A stretch of DNA of 7,912 nt from Candidatus Hydrogenedens sp. (GCA_049968235.1 JBMFRC010000040.1:1-7912); one strand, 5' to 3'. Shown: positions 548-7,603, numbered from the stretch's first letter. The notes: generated from the sequence alone by a model not told the origin. Numbers and translations: made by a program.

Positions 548-1765
548 ATGGAAGTATCCATGAAAGATGTCCTTGCTGTTCTACTTGCCGGGGGAGCCGG
601 AGAAAGATTGCACCCTCTAACAAGAAACAGAGCAAAACCTGCAGTTCCTTTTGGAGGTATTTATAGAATTGTAGACTTTACACTTTCTAATTGTATTAAT
701 TCAAACTGCAGAAGAATTCAGGTTCTCGTTCAATATAAATCAAATTCTCTTTCAAGACATATTAGAAATGCATGGAATATTGTTCATCGTGAATTAGGAG
801 AATTTATAGATATTATTCCTCCTCAAATGAGAATAAATGATAGTTGGTATCGCGGAACAGCAGATGCTATTTACCAGAATCTATATTCTATTGACCAGGA
901 AGACCCAAAAATAGTCCTTGTATTAGCAGGTGACCATATTTATAAGATGAACTATCAAAAAATGATTCAATACCATCAGGAAAGAGAAGCAGAATTAACT
1001 ATATCTGCTCTTGAAGTCCCCATTGAAGAAGGTTCTCGTTTTGGAATTATGCAGATAGATAAAAATAATAAAATTATCGGATTCGAAGAAAAACCCAAAG
1101 AACCAAAGTCAATACCCGATAAGCCTGATAAATGCCTTGCCTCTATGGGGATATATGTATTTAATAGGGATTTACTTGCAAATGCCGTAAAGGAAGATGC
1201 AGAAAAAGTTAATTCCGACCATGATTTTGGAAAAAATATTATTCCGAGACTAATTGAAAAAAATAATGTTTATGCATATCCTTTTGAAGATTTAAACAAA
1301 AAAGAAATACCCTACTGGCGTGATGTCGGAACAATTGATAGTTATTGGGAAGCAAATATGGACTTAGTTGAAGTGAGCCCTTTGTTTAATTTATATGACC
1401 GTGAATGGCCTATAAGAACTGTCGTGCCATCGCGTCCTCCCGCAAAATTCGTTTTTGCTGATTTCGGACATCGAATAGGTGTGGCTTTAGATTCTATCGT
1501 TAGTCCCGGATGTATTATCAGTGGAGGTATGGTCAAAAGAAGTATCCTATCAACGGATGTGCGTGTGAATAGTTATGCTTATGTTGAGGAATCCATTCTT
1601 TTTGATGGCTGTAATATAGGACGACATTCAAAGATACGCCGTGCCATTATTGAAAAAAATGTCCAACTGCCAGATAACACAGTCATTGGATATGACCTTG
1701 AGGAAGATTCTAAAAAATATCGTGTTACATCTACAGGTATTGTCGTAGTTGAAAACAAAATATAA
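548..1765 (+). CDS. glgC: Glucose-1-phosphate adenylyltransferase (ADP-glucose pyrophosphorylase)
   Basis: 405-aa ORF. The N-terminus LAGGAGERLHPLTRNRAKPAVPFGGIYRIVDFTLSNCINS...VLVQYKSNSLSRHI matches the hallmark GlgC nucleotide-binding/activator region (E. coli: [41 protein letters not shown]...QYQSHTLVQHI). GTADA, the LAGDHIYKMNY motif and a C-terminal left-handed beta-helix-like region are present. A strong SD lies upstream. Confidence 0.93.
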   Translation: MEVSMKDVLAVLLAGGAGERLHPLTRNRAKPAVPFGGIYRIVDFTLSNCINSNCRRIQVLVQYKSNSLSRHIRNAWNIVHRELGEFIDIIPPQMRINDSWYRGTADAIYQNLYSIDQEDPKIVLVLAGDHIYKMNYQKMIQYHQEREAELTISALEVPIEEGSRFGIMQIDKNNKIIGFEEKPKEPKSIPDKPDKCLASMGIYVFNRDLLANAVKEDAEKVNSDHDFGKNIIPRLIEKNNVYAYPFEDLNKKEIPYWRDVGTIDSYWEANMDLVEVSPLFNLYDREWPIRTVVPSRPPAKFVFADFGHRIGVALDSIVSPGCIISGGMVKRSILSTDVRVNSYAYVEESILFDGCNIGRHSKIRRAIIEKNVQLPDNTVIGYDLEEDSKKYRVTSTGIVVVENKI

Positions 1766-1776
1766 AACGTTTATTT

Positions 1777-2886
1777 ATGAAAATACTTAACTGTAAAACT
1801 AAAGAAATATTATTTATTCTGCTTACAATTTGGATATTTCTATTCCCTATAACCATATATTCCGAGATTTCTAATACCACCGAAATTACAGTAAAACCCG
1901 ATTACAATAGTATAGATGCATTTTTAGAAAAAGAAATAGATAAAAATAAAGAATATAACTCTCCTGAGGAACTACTTAAAAAAGCAAACGAGTTGTTGAA
2001 TTTAGTAGATTATTTTAAAGAACGAAAAGATAGAGATGTAATAAAAAAGATTATGTTGTCTATCGAGGAAATATACAAAGAAGGCTTATCAAAATACCCT
2101 GCAAATATAAGGATATATGATGATTATGGGGCTTTTCTATATGATTATAAGGGGGATTATATAAATTCTGTTCAATTATGGGAACAAGGGTACAAACTGG
2201 ATGAAAAAGATGCAAGCATAAACAATAATTTAGCCCTACACTATTTCCATATTGGTGAATATGATAAAGGATGGGATTATTTACAAAATGCACTAAAATA
2301 TGGTGAGAATGAATCTAATATATTATATAATTCAGCACAGATTTTTATAATTTATAGAAATCAAATTCAAGAAAGAACCGGCTGGGATAAAGAAAAAATA
2401 TATAAAAAAGCAATGGAATATTCTGAAAAAGCAGTAAAAATAAGTCCCAATGACTTTGAATTATTAAAAGATTATGCATTAAATTTTTTTGCCGCAGTTC
2501 AATTCAATTTACCGATAGAAGGAAAAAAATCTGCTATTGCATGGCAAACTGCAAGAAAACATGCCCAAAATGATGATGAAGTTTTTTATACATGGGTAAA
2601 TGAAGGAAGAGCATGGTTAGCCATTAACGAACTAAAAAAAGCAAGAGAGTGCCTTGTTGAGGCTATAAAAATACGACCTGATAGTGTAATTGTAAAAGAT
2701 ATATTGTCCCGTATTGATTCAGGAGAAATTAAGGAAAGTATTGAAGAACAAAAAAAGGCAAAACATAAACCTCCAGAAGAAGAATATCGAAATTCATTAA
2801 TATCTCCTTTTAAGAATTTTTCAGGCAAGAAAAATAAAACACCACTAATACCACAACAAGATAAACCCGAAAAGAAAAAGAAATAA
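1777..2886 (+). CDS. TPR-like repeat protein with N-terminal signal peptide or signal anchor and a Lys-rich C-terminal tail
   Basis: 369-aa ORF. The hydrophobic N-terminus (ILFILLTIWIFLFPITIYSE) is followed by a helical repeat architecture with TPR-like signatures (LALHYFHIGEYDKGWDYLQNALKYG, NSAQIFIIYRN, WVNEGRAWLAINELKKARECLVEAIKIRPD). It lies 11 nt after the glgC stop and no SD is evident. Confidence 0.6.
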   Translation: MKILNCKTKEILFILLTIWIFLFPITIYSEISNTTEITVKPDYNSIDAFLEKEIDKNKEYNSPEELLKKANELLNLVDYFKERKDRDVIKKIMLSIEEIYKEGLSKYPANIRIYDDYGAFLYDYKGDYINSVQLWEQGYKLDEKDASINNNLALHYFHIGEYDKGWDYLQNALKYGENESNILYNSAQIFIIYRNQIQERTGWDKEKIYKKAMEYSEKAVKISPNDFELLKDYALNFFAAVQFNLPIEGKKSAIAWQTARKHAQNDDEVFYTWVNEGRAWLAINELKKARECLVEAIKIRPDSVIVKDILSRIDSGEIKESIEEQKKAKHKPPEEEYRNSLISPFKNFSGKKNKTPLIPQQDKPEKKKK

Positions 2887-2896
2887 TCATTTTACT

Positions 2897-3631
2897 ATGC
2901 CATATTATCAAAAAAGTTACTATTATGAAAATATAAGTTATTTCCGTCCTCCAATTACACCAGGAGTAAGAGCTCTTATAATAATCAACATAGTTATTTT
3001 CGTAATACAGTTATTTATAGGATTACTAATTTCACTCTATAACTCTCTATTTGGTGGAATTTTCTTTGTAAATCAGTCTTTATCATATTTCCATATATCT
3101 TATTGGTTTGGATTTAATGTTCCAATGTTTGTAAAGGGTGCTTTATGGCAACCTTTTACATATTTGTTTATCCATTCCAGTTTATCGCATTTGTTTTTTA
3201 ATATGTTATGGCTTTATATATTTGGTCCTGAAGTGGAAATATACTTTACAAAAAAAAGATTTATTACATTTTATCTTTTTTGCGGAGTTATCTCTGTGCT
3301 GGTAAACTTTATCCCCTTTGTGATACGAGGATTTCAACCACCCATTATCGGTGCAAGTGGTAGTATTATGGCAGTTCTTATTGCATTTGCATATATTAAT
3401 CCTGAACGCGAATTTATTCTTTTCCCATTACCTATTCCTATTAATGCAAGAGGTATTGTTATTTTAGTTATACTGATGAATTTATTCTATGGTTTAGATG
3501 AAACTCAATATTCAGTTTTGACACATTTCGCAGGTATGGGTATTGGTTATCTTTATATTTCTGCGGACTATTTAGGTATTATATATAAAATAAAAAAAAT
3601 ACTTGGTTTAAATAAATTTGATGTAATATAA
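2897..3631 (+). CDS. Rhomboid-family intramembrane serine protease
   Basis: 244-aa polytopic membrane protein. TM1 (RALIIINIVIFVIQLF) is followed by a loop with WQPFTYLFIHSSLSHLFFNMLWLYIFG (rhomboid TM2 H..H...N motif), the catalytic GASGSIMAVL (GxSG) in TM4, and a catalytic His region THFAGMGIGYLY in TM6. It lies 10 nt after the upstream stop. Confidence 0.85.
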   Translation: MPYYQKSYYYENISYFRPPITPGVRALIIINIVIFVIQLFIGLLISLYNSLFGGIFFVNQSLSYFHISYWFGFNVPMFVKGALWQPFTYLFIHSSLSHLFFNMLWLYIFGPEVEIYFTKKRFITFYLFCGVISVLVNFIPFVIRGFQPPIIGASGSIMAVLIAFAYINPEREFILFPLPIPINARGIVILVILMNLFYGLDETQYSVLTHFAGMGIGYLYISADYLGIIYKIKKILGLNKFDVI

Positions 3632-3670
3632 CGGATTATTTCGTTAAATATAGTAAGGGATTTCTACTAT

Positions 3671-4030
3671 ATGTTTCCGAGTTTTCAGGAATTTTTAATG
3701 TTTATTGTGATTATTATCCTGTTAAATTTTACAGGAATACTACCCATTGTTATACGAACATTTAAGGAATTTCGAGGAGATTATGATGGTTATAGAGAAA
3801 GTGAGAGTAAAAATATAAAGGACAATAAAAATCCTCAAAACATAGAGATATCCTATCGTCTTTTAGGTGTTTCTCCCAGCAGTAGTTGGGAAGAAATAGA
3901 AAAAGCATACCGTAGAAAGGCAAAGATACATCATCCAGATCTCGGTGGCGATGAAGATACAATGAAAGCATTAAATGAAGCATATGAAATATTAAAAAGA
4001 ATTTACAAAGGAAATAAAAAAAATTTATGA
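3671..4030 (+). CDS. Small membrane-anchored J-domain (DnaJ-like) protein
   Basis: 119 aa. An N-terminal hydrophobic segment ([21 protein letters not shown]) is followed by a short J-domain: [47 protein letters not shown] with an intact HPD tripeptide. A weak SD (AAGGGA) lies about 10 nt upstream. Confidence 0.75.
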
Positions 4031-6006
4031 AAATAAATAGAAGAAAATTTCTATTCTCCTCTGCAGTTACTTTAGGTTTAATAACGAAATCAAAAAGTTT
4101 ATTTGCCAGTAATAATAAAACACGAGTAGTTCTTCTCGGTTTTGACGGAGCCGAGCCAGATATTGTAAAAAGCATGTTAGAAAAAAAACAATTGCCTAAT
4201 CTTGAAACAGTAATGAAACAGGGATGCTTTTTAAACCTAACTTCTACAATTCCTCCACAATCTCCAACAGCATGGTCAAGTTTTGCTACATGTAAAAATC
4301 CGGGAGAACACGGCATTTATGATTTTCTTCGTCGAGACCCCAAAACATATTTTCCGGGTTTAGCATTGGGGTCTGTTCATTCTCCAGAATTTGATGAACA
4401 GGGCAATCTCAAAAAAGAACCATACTTCGAAACATATCGAAGAGGGATTCCTTTCTGGAAAATTGCTGATGAACAGGGAATCCGTTGTAAGATTCTAAAT
4501 ATGCCATATTCATACCCACCTGATACATTAAAAAATGGATTAATGTTAAGTGGTCTGGGTGTTCCTGATATTAGAGGAACAGAAAGTTTATTTTTTGTGT
4601 TTTCCGATAGATTTACAGAGGAAGAATTAAAACAAAGTATTTCCGGAGGGATGCGTATTAAATTAAACTTTAACAATTCATTTGCAGAGGTAAAATTACC
4701 TGCTCTCCGTAATCCCATTAATCCTAAAAACGGATTTATAGAAGCAAATATAAGTTTCAAAGTAGATAAAACAACAAAGAAAGTAACTATAAATTTAGCA
4801 GATCGTAAAAGTATCCAGATTGAGCAAGGACATTGGTCCGATTGGATAGAATGGGAATTCCCCGTGACAGAAAAATATTCTGTAAAGGCAATCAGTAAAT
4901 TTTATGTAAACAAAATAGGTGAAGAAGTTAATATATATATGACTTGTTTGCAATTTCATCCTCGTTATCCCTATATACCTTTTACTCATCCAGTTAAATA
5001 TTCAGAAGAACTGGCAGAAAGATATGGACTGTATAAAACAATCGGATGGAATTATGATACACATGCTCTGCGTCAAGATGTTCTAACAGAGGATGTCTTC
5101 CTTGATGATGTTCGGAAAACAATGGCATGGCATGAAACGCTAATGTTGGATGAATTAAATAAAGAAGACGATTGGAAATTATTAATGACTATGTGGATGG
5201 CTACTGACAGAGTAGCCCATTTGTTCTGGCGTTTTCGTGACCCTCAACATCCGGAATATAATGCGGAAAAAGCAAAGGTTTACGGAGAAGCCATAGAGGA
5301 AACCTATCGGATAATGGACAAAATTATTGGTAATGCCATGAAATCTATTCGGGAGGATGATTGGTTAATAATAATGTCCGACCATGGGTTTAATACATAC
5401 CGAAAAGGGTTTAATCTGGGAACATGGCTTATACGGGAAGGATACCTTGTTGTAGAGGGACAAACAAATCCGGAAACTGCTTACAATGACCAGGCATTTC
5501 TTTTAGGTTATGATTGGAATAAAACAAAAGCATACGCTTTAGGATTAGGTTCCATATATCTTAATATTGAAGGTCGTGAAAAAAATGGAATTGTTAACAA
5601 AGAAGATGCAAGAGAGTTACGAGAGGAAATAAAAAATAAATTATTGAGTGTAAAAGACCCACAAACAAGTTTACCTGTAGTTAGTAATGTATATAGTTGT
5701 GAAGATTTTCATGGAGATGAAGTAAAAAATGCCCCTGACTTAATTTTGGGTTATCATAAAGGCTACCAATCAACAAAAGCAACCGCCAAAGGTTCTGCTC
5801 CCCAATCAATATTTGAAGATAATAAGGATAAATGGAGTGGTGACCATGTGGCAACAGATTATAAATTAATTCCCGGCATGATGATAACAAATAAAAATAT
5901 AAATACATCCTCACCCCACATTCAAGATATTGGCGTTTCCATTTTATCATACCTGAATTTAAATGTCCCCAAGGATTTGCAAGGGAAGAATATTCTTGAA
6001 GGTTGA
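4027..6006 (+). CDS. Tat-signal alkaline-phosphatase-superfamily enzyme (type I phosphodiesterase / nucleotide pyrophosphatase-like, PF01663-like)
   Basis: 659 aa. Its start overlaps the upstream stop (ATGA, 4027-4030). The N-terminus [28 protein letters not shown] has a twin-arginine RRxFL motif, an h-region and an AxA-like cleavage site. [10 protein letters not shown] (metal-binding Asp), a ...[28 protein letters not shown] nucleophile region (candidate Thr at 4246-4248), LIIMSDHGF and WSGDHV are typical of NPP/AlkP-like metallo-phosphoesterases. Confidence 0.8.
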
Positions 6007-6015
6007 AAATAATAA

Positions 6016-6990
6016 TTAACCGAACCATTTACGAGGGCGCTCTTTATTACGTTTATACATTTGTATAGCAGTAGAAGCATCTTCTTTTACTTGAAAATCA
6101 AACATTCCCACACAAATAAAATCAGCCCCATGTTTAAATGCAAAATCAAAACCTTTTTTAGGAGGTATTGCCCCAGCAGCAAGGACTTTAAATGCTATCC
6201 ACGGAACTTTAACATTTTTCATTATTTCCCGGGTTTTATCCGGGTCCATATCCCACTTATTGTCATAATATTCATTCGATTTAGCTGACCAATAATCAAG
6301 GGAATGGAATGTCTTCATATAAAAATCCGGATAAATTCCCTCTTTTTCACATGCGATAACAACATCGATAGAGTGACCGCCAATACCTCCTATAACACCT
6401 TTATCCCGTATATGGTCAACTATTTTCCCTAAAAGTTTTGTATCTCCTTTTTTTACAAAATCATCTCCTATCTGTCCCTGAATATATACACCAGTAGCGC
6501 CGTTATCGATGGCTATATCTGCATCCTCAAAAAGATTGATTTTCTTAGGCTTTATTTGTGCAATCCATTGTATTTTTCCATGATATTCTCTCCAATAGCG
6601 ATTGATAATTTTTAATGTTTTATCATCCAATCTCAATATCGCAGTATTTATACCTGCCTGCTCGTATAAATTAAGTGTTTGCAATATCTTTTGTTCTGTA
6701 AAATAGTTTCTCATTAATTCGCTAACATAAATCAAATCCCTACTATGGGATATTCCACTTATTAAATTTCCCCCGGCTATTAGCCTGCTCACTTCAAGAT
6801 GTTTGATTTTCCCCATCGGCATATTTTTAGGCAAATCCTCAACGTTATTTAAATAGTCTTCTTCCTCTAATAATTCTCCTTGTTCCTCAATCAGAGGTAG
6901 GGAATCATTTTGATTTAGAATTGAATTTGCTAAAAAAGGAGAAAGAGAAGCGCCAGCAATAAATTCTCTTCTTGATATATGGTCCTTCAT
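6016..6990 (-). CDS. Tat-signal (twin-arginine) exported protein of unknown function; predicted alpha/beta, possibly a TIM-barrel-like fold
   Basis: 324 aa. MKDHISRREFIAGASLSPFLANS is a good Tat signal. An acidic linker (EEQGELLEEEDYLNNVED) precedes an alternating beta/alpha pattern with Gly-rich loops (GGIGGHS, AAGAIPP). SD AGGAG (reverse complement of 6997-7001) lies 6 nt from the ATG. No family assignment is possible by eye. Confidence 0.6.
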   Translation of the reverse strand: MKDHISRREFIAGASLSPFLANSILNQNDSLPLIEEQGELLEEEDYLNNVEDLPKNMPMGKIKHLEVSRLIAGGNLISGISHSRDLIYVSELMRNYFTEQKILQTLNLYEQAGINTAILRLDDKTLKIINRYWREYHGKIQWIAQIKPKKINLFEDADIAIDNGATGVYIQGQIGDDFVKKGDTKLLGKIVDHIRDKGVIGGIGGHSIDVVIACEKEGIYPDFYMKTFHSLDYWSAKSNEYYDNKWDMDPDKTREIMKNVKVPWIAFKVLAAGAIPPKKGFDFAFKHGADFICVGMFDFQVKEDASTAIQMYKRNKERPRKWFG

Positions 6991-7093: not shown

Positions 7094-7603
7094 ATGACGG
7101 ATATACAGAAATATGAACGATATGCAGAAAAAATATCACTCTTTAATGGTTTAATGGCAGAAGAAGTAGAAGACTTGATAAAAAGAGGTAAAATTATTAT
7201 TGCAAGAAAAGGGGAGACCATATTCCATGAAGGAATGTTAGGTAGCAACTTATTTATTGTATTGAGCGGTAAAGTTGGTATTTATATAAAAAATCAACTT
7301 ATAACAAAATGCCATGTTGGTGATACTTTTGGTGAAATGGCAGTGTTAAATAAAAAACCAAGAACAGCAACTGCGACCGCATTAGAAGAAAGTCGTTTAT
7401 TATGTCTGGATGAAAAACAGATAAACGATATATTAGAAAAACATGTCGCAGTAAGGTTATTGCTCAATGCCATACATTTCTTGAGTGAACGATTAGAGAG
7501 AGATAATTATTTAATTGCAGAAATGGTTAAGACATTAAAAAAACATAATATAGATATTCCGGAAATAGAACCTAAAAAGGGTAAGGAAGATAAAAAACAA
7601 TAG
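7094..7603 (+). CDS. Stand-alone cyclic-nucleotide-binding (CNB) domain protein; no DNA-binding or other effector domain
   Basis: 169 aa. FGEMAVLNKKPRTATATALEESRLLCLD matches the cNMP-binding signature F-G-E-x-A-[LIV]-x(5)-R-[ST]-A-T-A-x-A. The beta-barrel is followed by the hinge/C-helix (VAVRLLLNAIHFLSERLERDNYLIAEMV) and a short charged tail with no HTH. Confidence 0.8.
   Translation: MTDIQKYERYAEKISLFNGLMAEEVEDLIKRGKIIIARKGETIFHEGMLGSNLFIVLSGKVGIYIKNQLITKCHVGDTFGEMAVLNKKPRTATATALEESRLLCLDEKQINDILEKHVAVRLLLNAIHFLSERLERDNYLIAEMVKTLKKHNIDIPEIEPKKGKEDKKQ

Follow-up and report, generated by a model that had tools for sequence, protein, structure and literature searches.

A 7,912-nucleotide (nt) stretch of DNA from Candidatus Hydrogenedens sp. 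(GCA_049968235.1 JBMFRC010000040.1:1-7912; hereafter "the window") encodes, at positions 3671-4030, a 119-amino-acid (aa) membrane-tethered J-domain protein, the gene for which lies immediately downstream of a gene for a rhomboid intramembrane serine protease. Rhomboid gene and J gene constitute an invariant two-gene unit, usually situated inside a block that runs TPR-repeat protein, signal peptidase I, rhomboid, and J-protein; the phylum-wide association of a dedicated mini J-protein with a rhomboid protease is what is new here. The pairing points to an undescribed link of rhomboid proteolysis with the DnaK chaperone. The reading we favor, to which we would give an even chance, is that the J-protein faces the cytoplasm, recruits DnaK, and acts together with the rhomboid to process membrane proteins or to control their quality; support for the link to the rhomboid is strong and purely genomic. 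The J gene, the parts of its product, and the rhomboid gene are as follows (TM, transmembrane; AF2, AlphaFold2; pLDDT, predicted local distance difference test).

3671-4030, + strand: mini J-protein gene; ATG start; 119 aa; single-pass membrane-tethered class C J-domain protein.
3692-3736, + strand: short TM helix, residues 8-21, running to an invariant Gly22 hinge and preceded by a nearly invariant Glu7 (hydropathy, AF2, conservation).
3737-3775, + strand: basic amphipathic helix, residues 23-35, at the predicted cytoplasmic face (AF2, hydrophobic moment, charge).
3776-3832, + strand: variable linker, residues 36-54 (pLDDT, length variation, gapped unconserved alignment).
3833-4021, + strand: J-domain helices I-III, residues 55-117, with no helix IV (Pfam DnaJ, PDB profile search, Foldseek).
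2897-3631, + strand: six-TM rhomboid intramembrane serine protease, 244 aa (Pfam Rhomboid, E 1.2e-25).
3632-3670, + strand: rhomboid-J spacer, 39 nt, with a Shine-Dalgarno (SD)-like AAGGGA (sequence reading).

The gene pair was followed through a search of 185,579 species, each represented by a single genome, which yielded 140 encoding stretches; the best 80 loci were analyzed, using tblastn with the window proteins plus analysis at the level of open reading frames (ORFs). Of these loci, 77 are informative, and the other three start at the J gene. The rhomboid gene is immediately 5' of the J gene, on the same strand, in 77/77 species-level loci, and the spacer between rhomboid stop and J start has a median of 33.5 nt (≤100 nt in 73/76). 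The pairing is also recovered from the rhomboid side, where independent gene calls and precomputed Pfam assignments place a DnaJ-domain gene downstream of all three divergent rhomboid orthologs (P0189, P0174, and P0152; 37-44% identity); the J genes in question encode 107-124 aa and begin 2-52 nt downstream of the rhomboid. The next-closest rhomboid clade, an out-group found in a DUF3857-OPT-rhomboid context, has no J neighbor, which marks the pairing as derived and specific to its clade. The earlier note on this DNA had offered, as an alternative, that the J-protein is a co-chaperone for the adjacent rhomboid, and it is this alternative that the data favor, on gene order only.

Upstream of the pair, the window encodes the first gene of the conserved block:

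1777-2886, + strand: TPR-repeat protein, 369 aa, with an N-terminal hydrophobic signal or anchor, 10 nt 5' of the rhomboid gene (Pfam TPR_2, E 3.4e-10, plus other TPR models).

Homologs of the TPR protein are encoded 5' of the rhomboid in ~50 loci (tblastn). A Peptidase_S26 gene (signal peptidase I; Pfam E 9.5e-34) is directly 5' of the rhomboid, and co-oriented with it, in 37/65 loci, seen within L007-L078; gene positions include L033:7311-7868, L086:2323-2925, and L087:2384-2959. Independent gene calls for L086 and L087 give the order TPR, S26, rhomboid, DnaJ. The S26 gene is absent from the window (between 2886 and 2897), and the genus-level clade has either lost it or never had it. Because the downstream flank is not conserved, and the upstream flank is conserved only in part (as for S26), the rhomboid-J pair is the invariant core of the block.

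The ORF at 3671-4030 is a real gene rather than a chance ORF, since it has 139 homologs of 98-124 aa, 140 genomic matches, and 18 invariant columns. An SD-like AAGGGA at 3655-3660 lies 10 nt 5' of the start codon. Pfam DnaJ (PF00226) matches residues 62-110 (E 7.9e-13; 48.7 bits vs. a cut-off of 27.8 bits), and a Pfam scan of the 119-aa protein finds DnaJ alone, with no other notable domain; the NCBIfam DnaJ and DjlA models match just the J-domain region, with scores far under their cut-offs. The His-Pro-Asp (HPD) motif (H88-P89-D90, CAT-CCA-GAT, nt 3932-3940) occupies the loop that connects helices II and III, and all aligned homologs (27/27) have it. The 18 invariant columns of this 27-sequence alignment are G22, G66, W73, E77, A79, K83, A84, H88, P89, D90, G92, G93, D94, D96, M98, N102, A104, and Y105, among which K83, A84, M98, N102, and Y105 belong to helices II and III. 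In an AF2 model based on the family alignment, the J-domain helices span residues 55-65, 73-87, and 95-117, with pLDDT of 84-88. Helix IV is absent from the model, and the PF00226 match stops at position 55/63, where the protein terminates, just past helix III. Thus, the reading of this ORF in the earlier note as a 119-aa protein with an intact HPD J-domain is borne out, as is the J-domain itself by Pfam and PDB profile searches. An exact-sequence look-up of the window protein gave no match. On the opposite strand, a 184-aa antisense ORF (3762-4316, - strand) covers the greater part of the J gene plus the 5' end of the phosphodiesterase gene that follows it, and is treated as a chance ORF.

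In Foldseek comparisons with the PDB, the best matches of the modeled J-domain are the J-domains of Sis1, DNAJA1, and Thermus thermophilus and Escherichia coli DnaJ (root-mean-square deviation 1.3-2.3 Å); a sequence-profile search of the PDB finds the Sis1 J-domain at 2.9e-9 and many DnaJ-type J-domains at ~3e-9. Tim14 (2guz_A) is among the Foldseek matches (rank 13; target-normalized template-modeling score, TMt, 0.72). A kinship to Pam18/Tim14, to which the HPD-x-GG motif had pointed, is rejected: the 57 PDB sequences that reach E ≤ 1e-3 in the profile search do not include 2guz. By these comparisons the J-domain is of the ordinary type, because the PDB profile favors Sis1/DnaJ and does not list Tim14, and it is the whole architecture (TM plus J-domain, ~115 aa, no helix IV) that mirrors Pam18/DNAJC19.

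The family was found almost exclusively in Hydrogenedentota. A word-indexed search returned the 139 homologs, and all organism names given for them are Candidatus Hydrogenedens, Hydrogenedentes, or Hydrogenedentota. The labels of the 80 genomic loci comprise 57 Hydrogenedent*, 15 "uncultured Nitrospirales/Nitrospiraceae" bins, five "uncultured bacterium," and three others; the bins with non-Hydrogenedent labels have the same synteny as the rest. The nearest locus is that of Ca. Hydrogenedens terephthalaticus (L001; 93% J-protein identity), and identity drops to 43% among the 77 informative loci. When 1.84 billion representatives of 50%-identity clusters were searched exhaustively with HMMER, only three full-length family-like matches (P0242, P0247, and P0250) and fragments emerged, followed by generic J-domains. 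P0247 and P0250, the most distant full-length TM-plus-J relatives (L085:556-2015 and L084:1-529, respectively), do not adjoin a rhomboid: P0247 follows an LPG_synthase_TM-family membrane protein, and P0250 overlaps the end of a gene for another membrane protein. Mini anchored J-proteins of other lineages may pair with different polytopic membrane proteins.

The sole hydrophobic segment of the J-protein comprises residues ~8-21 (Kyte-Doolittle 15-residue mean up to 2.7), in agreement with the single N-terminal anchor of the earlier note. That note's description of an anchor and a J-domain with nothing else holds for both of these parts, but not for what lies between them: the Gly22 hinge, Pro25, the amphipathic helix of residues 23-35, and a linker. 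AF2 gives a helix at 5-21, a break at G22, and a second helix at 23-34; residues 23-35 have a hydrophobic moment of 0.59, and residues 36-52 have pLDDT <50. The linker is disordered and is 12-32 residues long across the family. All 51 N-termini compared have G22, and at least 90% of them keep E7 and P25; the consensus of the J-family N-terminus is M..xxQE.L....II.VLS.TGLWP.VIRGLRELRGE. Net charge is more positive after the TM helix than before it in 74/76 family sequences. By the positive-inside rule, this supports a predicted N-out/C-in topology, with a few N-terminal residues outside; the J-domain is placed in the cytoplasm because the post-TM segment is the more positive in those 74 members, which answers the topology check that had been proposed for it.

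The rhomboid that adjoins this protein has an active site consisting of Ser154 (GASG), His210, and H98/N102 (HxxxN), present in the window protein and in 72-76/77 orthologs, in keeping with the rhomboid signature of GxSG in TM4, His in TM6, and HxxxN in TM2; the Ser/His dyad itself is kept in 75-76/77. It is essentially a 6-TM core, with neither a cytoplasmic nor a TPR domain. It lacks a cytoplasmic domain of its own because its 244 aa are accounted for by the core. From these residues the rhomboid is catalytically intact and predicted to be active, without an accessory domain.

An active protease beside a single-pass N-out/C-in protein raises the question of whether the J-protein is a substrate of the rhomboid, such that cleavage in or near the membrane would mature or release it and so turn the recruitment of DnaK on or off. 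The classic rhomboid substrate of bacteria, TatA (PMC3712462; PMC2941825), shares this orientation and is weakly similar at its N-terminus; in Providencia stuartii it is trimmed by the rhomboid AarA. Rhomboids recognize a motif with a large hydrophobic P4, a small P1, and a hydrophobic P2' residue near the outer end of the TM segment (Strisovsky motif; PMC2941825), and this motif occurs in only 7/76 N-termini of the J family, the window protein not among them. Many members, moreover, have just 2-4 residues before the conserved Q-E, so that there is no pro-peptide to remove, and the outer half of the TM helix is rich in Ile/Val/Leu and has no helix breakers. We therefore consider a substrate role quite unlikely.

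The favored reading, that of a DnaK recruiter working with the rhomboid, would operate as follows. The short TM helix (with Glu7, Gly22, and Pro25) and the amphipathic helix would hold the J-protein at or beside the rhomboid in the membrane, and the flexible linker of ~20 residues would let the HPD J-domain trigger ATP hydrolysis by DnaK at the cytoplasmic face. DnaK could then clamp cytoplasmic segments of rhomboid clients or of cleavage products, and hold them, pull them out, or pass them on for degradation. In this way, the J-protein would do for this rhomboid, in trans, what fused domains or partner ATPases do for others as a cytoplasmic "adaptor." What has been observed comprises the gene and its domains, the signal for its topology, a conserved active site, and synteny; from these we infer that the J-protein associates physically with the rhomboid and uses DnaK, as well as the direction of any hand-off.

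The main rival to this reading is that the J-protein is a general membrane-proximal recruiter of DnaK, similar to DjlA and serving many clients, which would share an operon with the rhomboid by way of a regulon for processing and quality control of envelope proteins, without forming a specific complex with it. The presence in the block of signal peptidase I and the TPR protein would fit such a cluster for exported-protein processing, and the distant TM-plus-J relatives pair with a different membrane protein. Nevertheless, the S26 and TPR genes come and go, whereas rhomboid and J genes are never split (77/77 loci; 3/3 rhomboid-side look-ups), and the high conservation of E7, G22, and P25 in the anchor would be needless for a passive lipid anchor. 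On balance, we regard a general recruiter as unlikely. Several observations nonetheless weigh against a rhomboid-specific role. GlgC, which is functionally unrelated, is syntenic in ~20 loci, such that neutral synteny of the block may account for part of the conservation. P0247 and P0250 adjoin other membrane proteins, which means that the anchor-plus-J design is not intrinsically tied to rhomboids. No rhomboid-J fusion of the Rosetta-stone type was found among the best 150 profile matches, and Pfam analysis of the 10 long or offset ones detected no rhomboid domain; this absence also sits well with a general recruiter. Finally, every functional link drawn here rests on gene order.

A specific partnership, if it exists, would bear on the biology of bacterial rhomboids. 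To our knowledge, the physiological roles of bacterial rhomboids, and the fate of their membrane-embedded clients and products, are largely unknown, and we know of no characterized coupling of a rhomboid to a cytoplasmic ATP-driven machine other than that of YqgP with FtsH. Invariable co-encoding suggests that, in one whole phylum, Hsp70 (DnaK) takes the role of ATP-driven partner, and the pair would then be a compact bacterial counterpart of Derlin-p97 and of TimRhom-Pam27-mtHsp70. No description of the pairing was found in the literature on rhomboids with J-domain, DnaK, operon, or Hydrogenedentes; a large census of J-domain proteins does not mention rhomboids, and DnaJ, J-domain, Hsp70, and DnaK all go unmentioned in a broad 2025 review of the rhomboid superfamily (PMC12615303). 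With products of 244 aa and 115-119 aa, both genes are small enough to be tested easily in E. coli, and they offer a clean lead, resting on synteny, into bacterial rhomboid biology and an uncultured phylum.

Membrane-anchored class C J-proteins are a known kind, represented by DjlA and Pam18. Pam18/Tim14/DNAJC19 and TbPam27 share with the Hydrogenedentota protein an N-terminal single TM segment, a short linker, and a C-terminal J-domain that lacks helix IV; DNAJC19 is about 115 aa, and the 119-aa J-protein has the Pam18-type layout of a single TM segment plus a C-terminal J-domain in a protein of ~110-170 aa. TbPam27 is a membrane J-protein that needs its HPD motif and co-purifies with the rhomboid-like TimRhom I (PMC7064343). 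The TbPam27 system thereby combines a rhomboid-fold protein, a membrane J-protein, and Hsp70; TimRhom, however, is a pseudoprotease of a translocase, whereas the rhomboid here is a bacterial one that is catalytically intact by sequence. Neighbors of the Pam16, Tim44, or Tim17 type were not found around the J gene (Pfam of the window; tblastn of the loci).

YqgP has its rhomboid core combined with a TPR domain. This Bacillus subtilis protein (also GluP) is an active rhomboid that serves as an adaptor of the AAA+ protease FtsH in membrane-protein quality control (PMC7231995). The resemblance lies in a rhomboid that is tied to a cytoplasmic ATP-driven machine, and a TPR protein is encoded in the Hydrogenedentota block; by contrast, the extra domains of YqgP are fused and its partner is FtsH, whereas here there is a bare core, separate genes, and a putative DnaK partner reached through the J-domain. 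DjlA, the class C J-protein of the E. coli inner membrane, likewise has an N-terminal TM anchor and a C-terminal cytoplasmic J-domain at a bacterial inner membrane, but differs in gene context and in its central domain of ~200 residues, which is missing here. The J-protein is indeed far smaller than DjlA-type proteins, as had been noted (119 aa vs. a 267-position model); DjlA model NF006948 scores 32.3 bits (cut-off 162), with residues 41-90 matching model positions 182-231 only.

The anchor has a further resemblance, to the TatA/TatB components of the twin-arginine translocation (Tat) system, which raises the possibility that it is a diverged TatA/TatB module. On this basis, TatBC would be the docking site of the J-protein, or TatA its assembly partner, DnaK would hold or proofread Tat precursors, and the rhomboid would exert control as AarA does over TatA. 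The features that recall TatA/B are a short N-out TM segment in which a polar residue stands where TatA/B have position 8, followed by a Gly hinge, a Pro, and a basic amphipathic helix; in addition, the J gene adjoins a rhomboid gene. Profile alignment (hhalign) with a set of 11 TatA/B/E sequences yields a local P of 2e-4 and a probability of 47-77%, the observed score being reached by 1/300 block-preserving column shuffles; with five PDB-verified TatA/B sequences, in a post hoc comparison, it yields a P of 1.5e-4 and a probability of 51% over 33 columns. A profile search of the PDB with the anchor ranks TatA (9e07_F) fourth of 177,635 (E 1.5). When a TatA hidden Markov model (HMM) is run against 7,438 locus ORFs of 45-400 aa, N-termini of the J family are the top six matches and 14 of the top 19 (E 0.17-10).

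None of these scores is significant singly, and it was a resemblance already seen by eye that prompted the comparison. Pfam TatA_B_E (PF02416) matches 1/51 N-termini, at E 0.29, and does not match the N-terminal fragment of the window protein. The F-G hinge of TatA/B is T-G here and KKLP is LWP, the rhomboid recognition motif is absent from 69/76 members, and the C-terminal part is a J-domain. Modules that consist of a short TM segment and an amphipathic helix can converge, and Tat-substrate neighbors are not conserved. The TatA/B signal is consistent but sub-threshold, homology is not established, and we consider this derivation very unlikely. If true, it would make the J-protein the first case of an Hsp70 co-chaperone incorporated in a Tat-type component, and the rhomboid-J pair a regulatory offshoot of the Tat system.

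Tat export also figured in the initial interpretation of the J gene, by way of the gene that follows it in the window:

4027-6006, + strand: Phosphodiest-family (alkaline-phosphatase superfamily) enzyme, 659 aa, with N-terminal RRKFL (Pfam PF01663, E 3.2e-36); a lineage-specific neighbor outside the conserved module.
4027-4030, + strand: ATGA stop/start overlap between the J gene and the phosphodiesterase gene (sequence; window strain only).

The overlap is seen in the sequence as the earlier note had described it. The assignment of the downstream product as a Tat substrate stands in part: the protein belongs to the Phosphodiest family, and its RR-x-F-L motif is conserved in the four complete orthologs examined, but Tat-signal HMMs give no match to it at E ≤ 0.1, so that the assignment depends on the motif. 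From this arrangement, coupled translation of the J-protein and the Tat-signal phosphodiesterase had been proposed, with the J-protein passing the folded precursor of the enzyme on to the Tat system, as would a redox enzyme maturation protein (REMP) chaperone. The two genes do remain adjacent in the closest relatives (L001-L006, 58-93% identity), with gaps of 2-20 nt and J-proteins of 115-123 aa. However, the pairing is confined to these 6/77 loci and is absent from the other 71, and the ATGA overlap is unique to the window, where it is created by a 4-residue C-terminal extension (GNKKNL) of the J-protein relative to its nearest homologs, which have 115 aa in the family alignment. Across the phylum, the J family is kept beside unrelated downstream genes on either strand; in loci with enough downstream sequence, the next gene varies in family as well as strand and has no conserved RR motif. 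REMP chaperones (TorD, DmsD, and NapD) resemble the J-protein only in the proposed role, that of a cytoplasmic factor acting before Tat export; the J-protein is membrane-anchored, is not consistently encoded with a Tat substrate, and has no TorD-, DmsD-, or NapD-type domain in its 119 aa (Pfam: DnaJ only). Recurrence of the pairing in other genomes was the test named for the escort role, and it failed. On the evidence of synteny and of an overlap specific to one strain, the Tat-coupling reading is rejected, a hand-off of this kind being scarcely probable; the ATGA coupling is, to judge from gene order, a recent local accident in one strain.

In the window, the genes at 548-6006 (+ strand) encode GlgC, the TPR protein, the rhomboid, the J-protein, and the phosphodiesterase, with gaps of 11, 10, 39, and -4 nt. 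There are no terminator-like sites at the four junctions, including the rhomboid-J spacer, and the counts from promoter and terminator scans are at the expectation from shuffled sequence, so that these scans carry no information; the rhomboid and J genes are in the same reading frame. The genes from GlgC to the phosphodiesterase are probably one transcript in the window strain, although GlgC has no evident functional relation to the others.

Among the neighboring genes, an atypical Hsp70-family gene in one locus (L086:1-1103, - strand; PF00012, with a weak MreB_Mbl match) sits 5' of the TPR-S26-rhomboid-J block, in divergent orientation; tblastn finds no counterpart in the other loci or in the window. 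Convergent with the phosphodiesterase gene is a 324-aa ORF (6016-6990, - strand), the product of which starts MKDHISRREFIAGASL, a second twin-arginine-like motif; this ORF matches no Pfam or NCBIfam family. Conserved counterparts exist in L002-L004 and L006 and, outside these loci, in L012 and L024. The window begins within a Crp/Fnr-type regulator gene (1-516, + strand) that is cut by the window start, its frame open from base 1, and towards the other end 7094-7603 (+ strand) encodes a 169-aa stand-alone cyclic nucleotide (cNMP)-binding protein without a helix-turn-helix. In L003 and L006, which are close relatives, the block is likewise flanked by the Crp/Fnr-type gene and the cNMP-binding gene.

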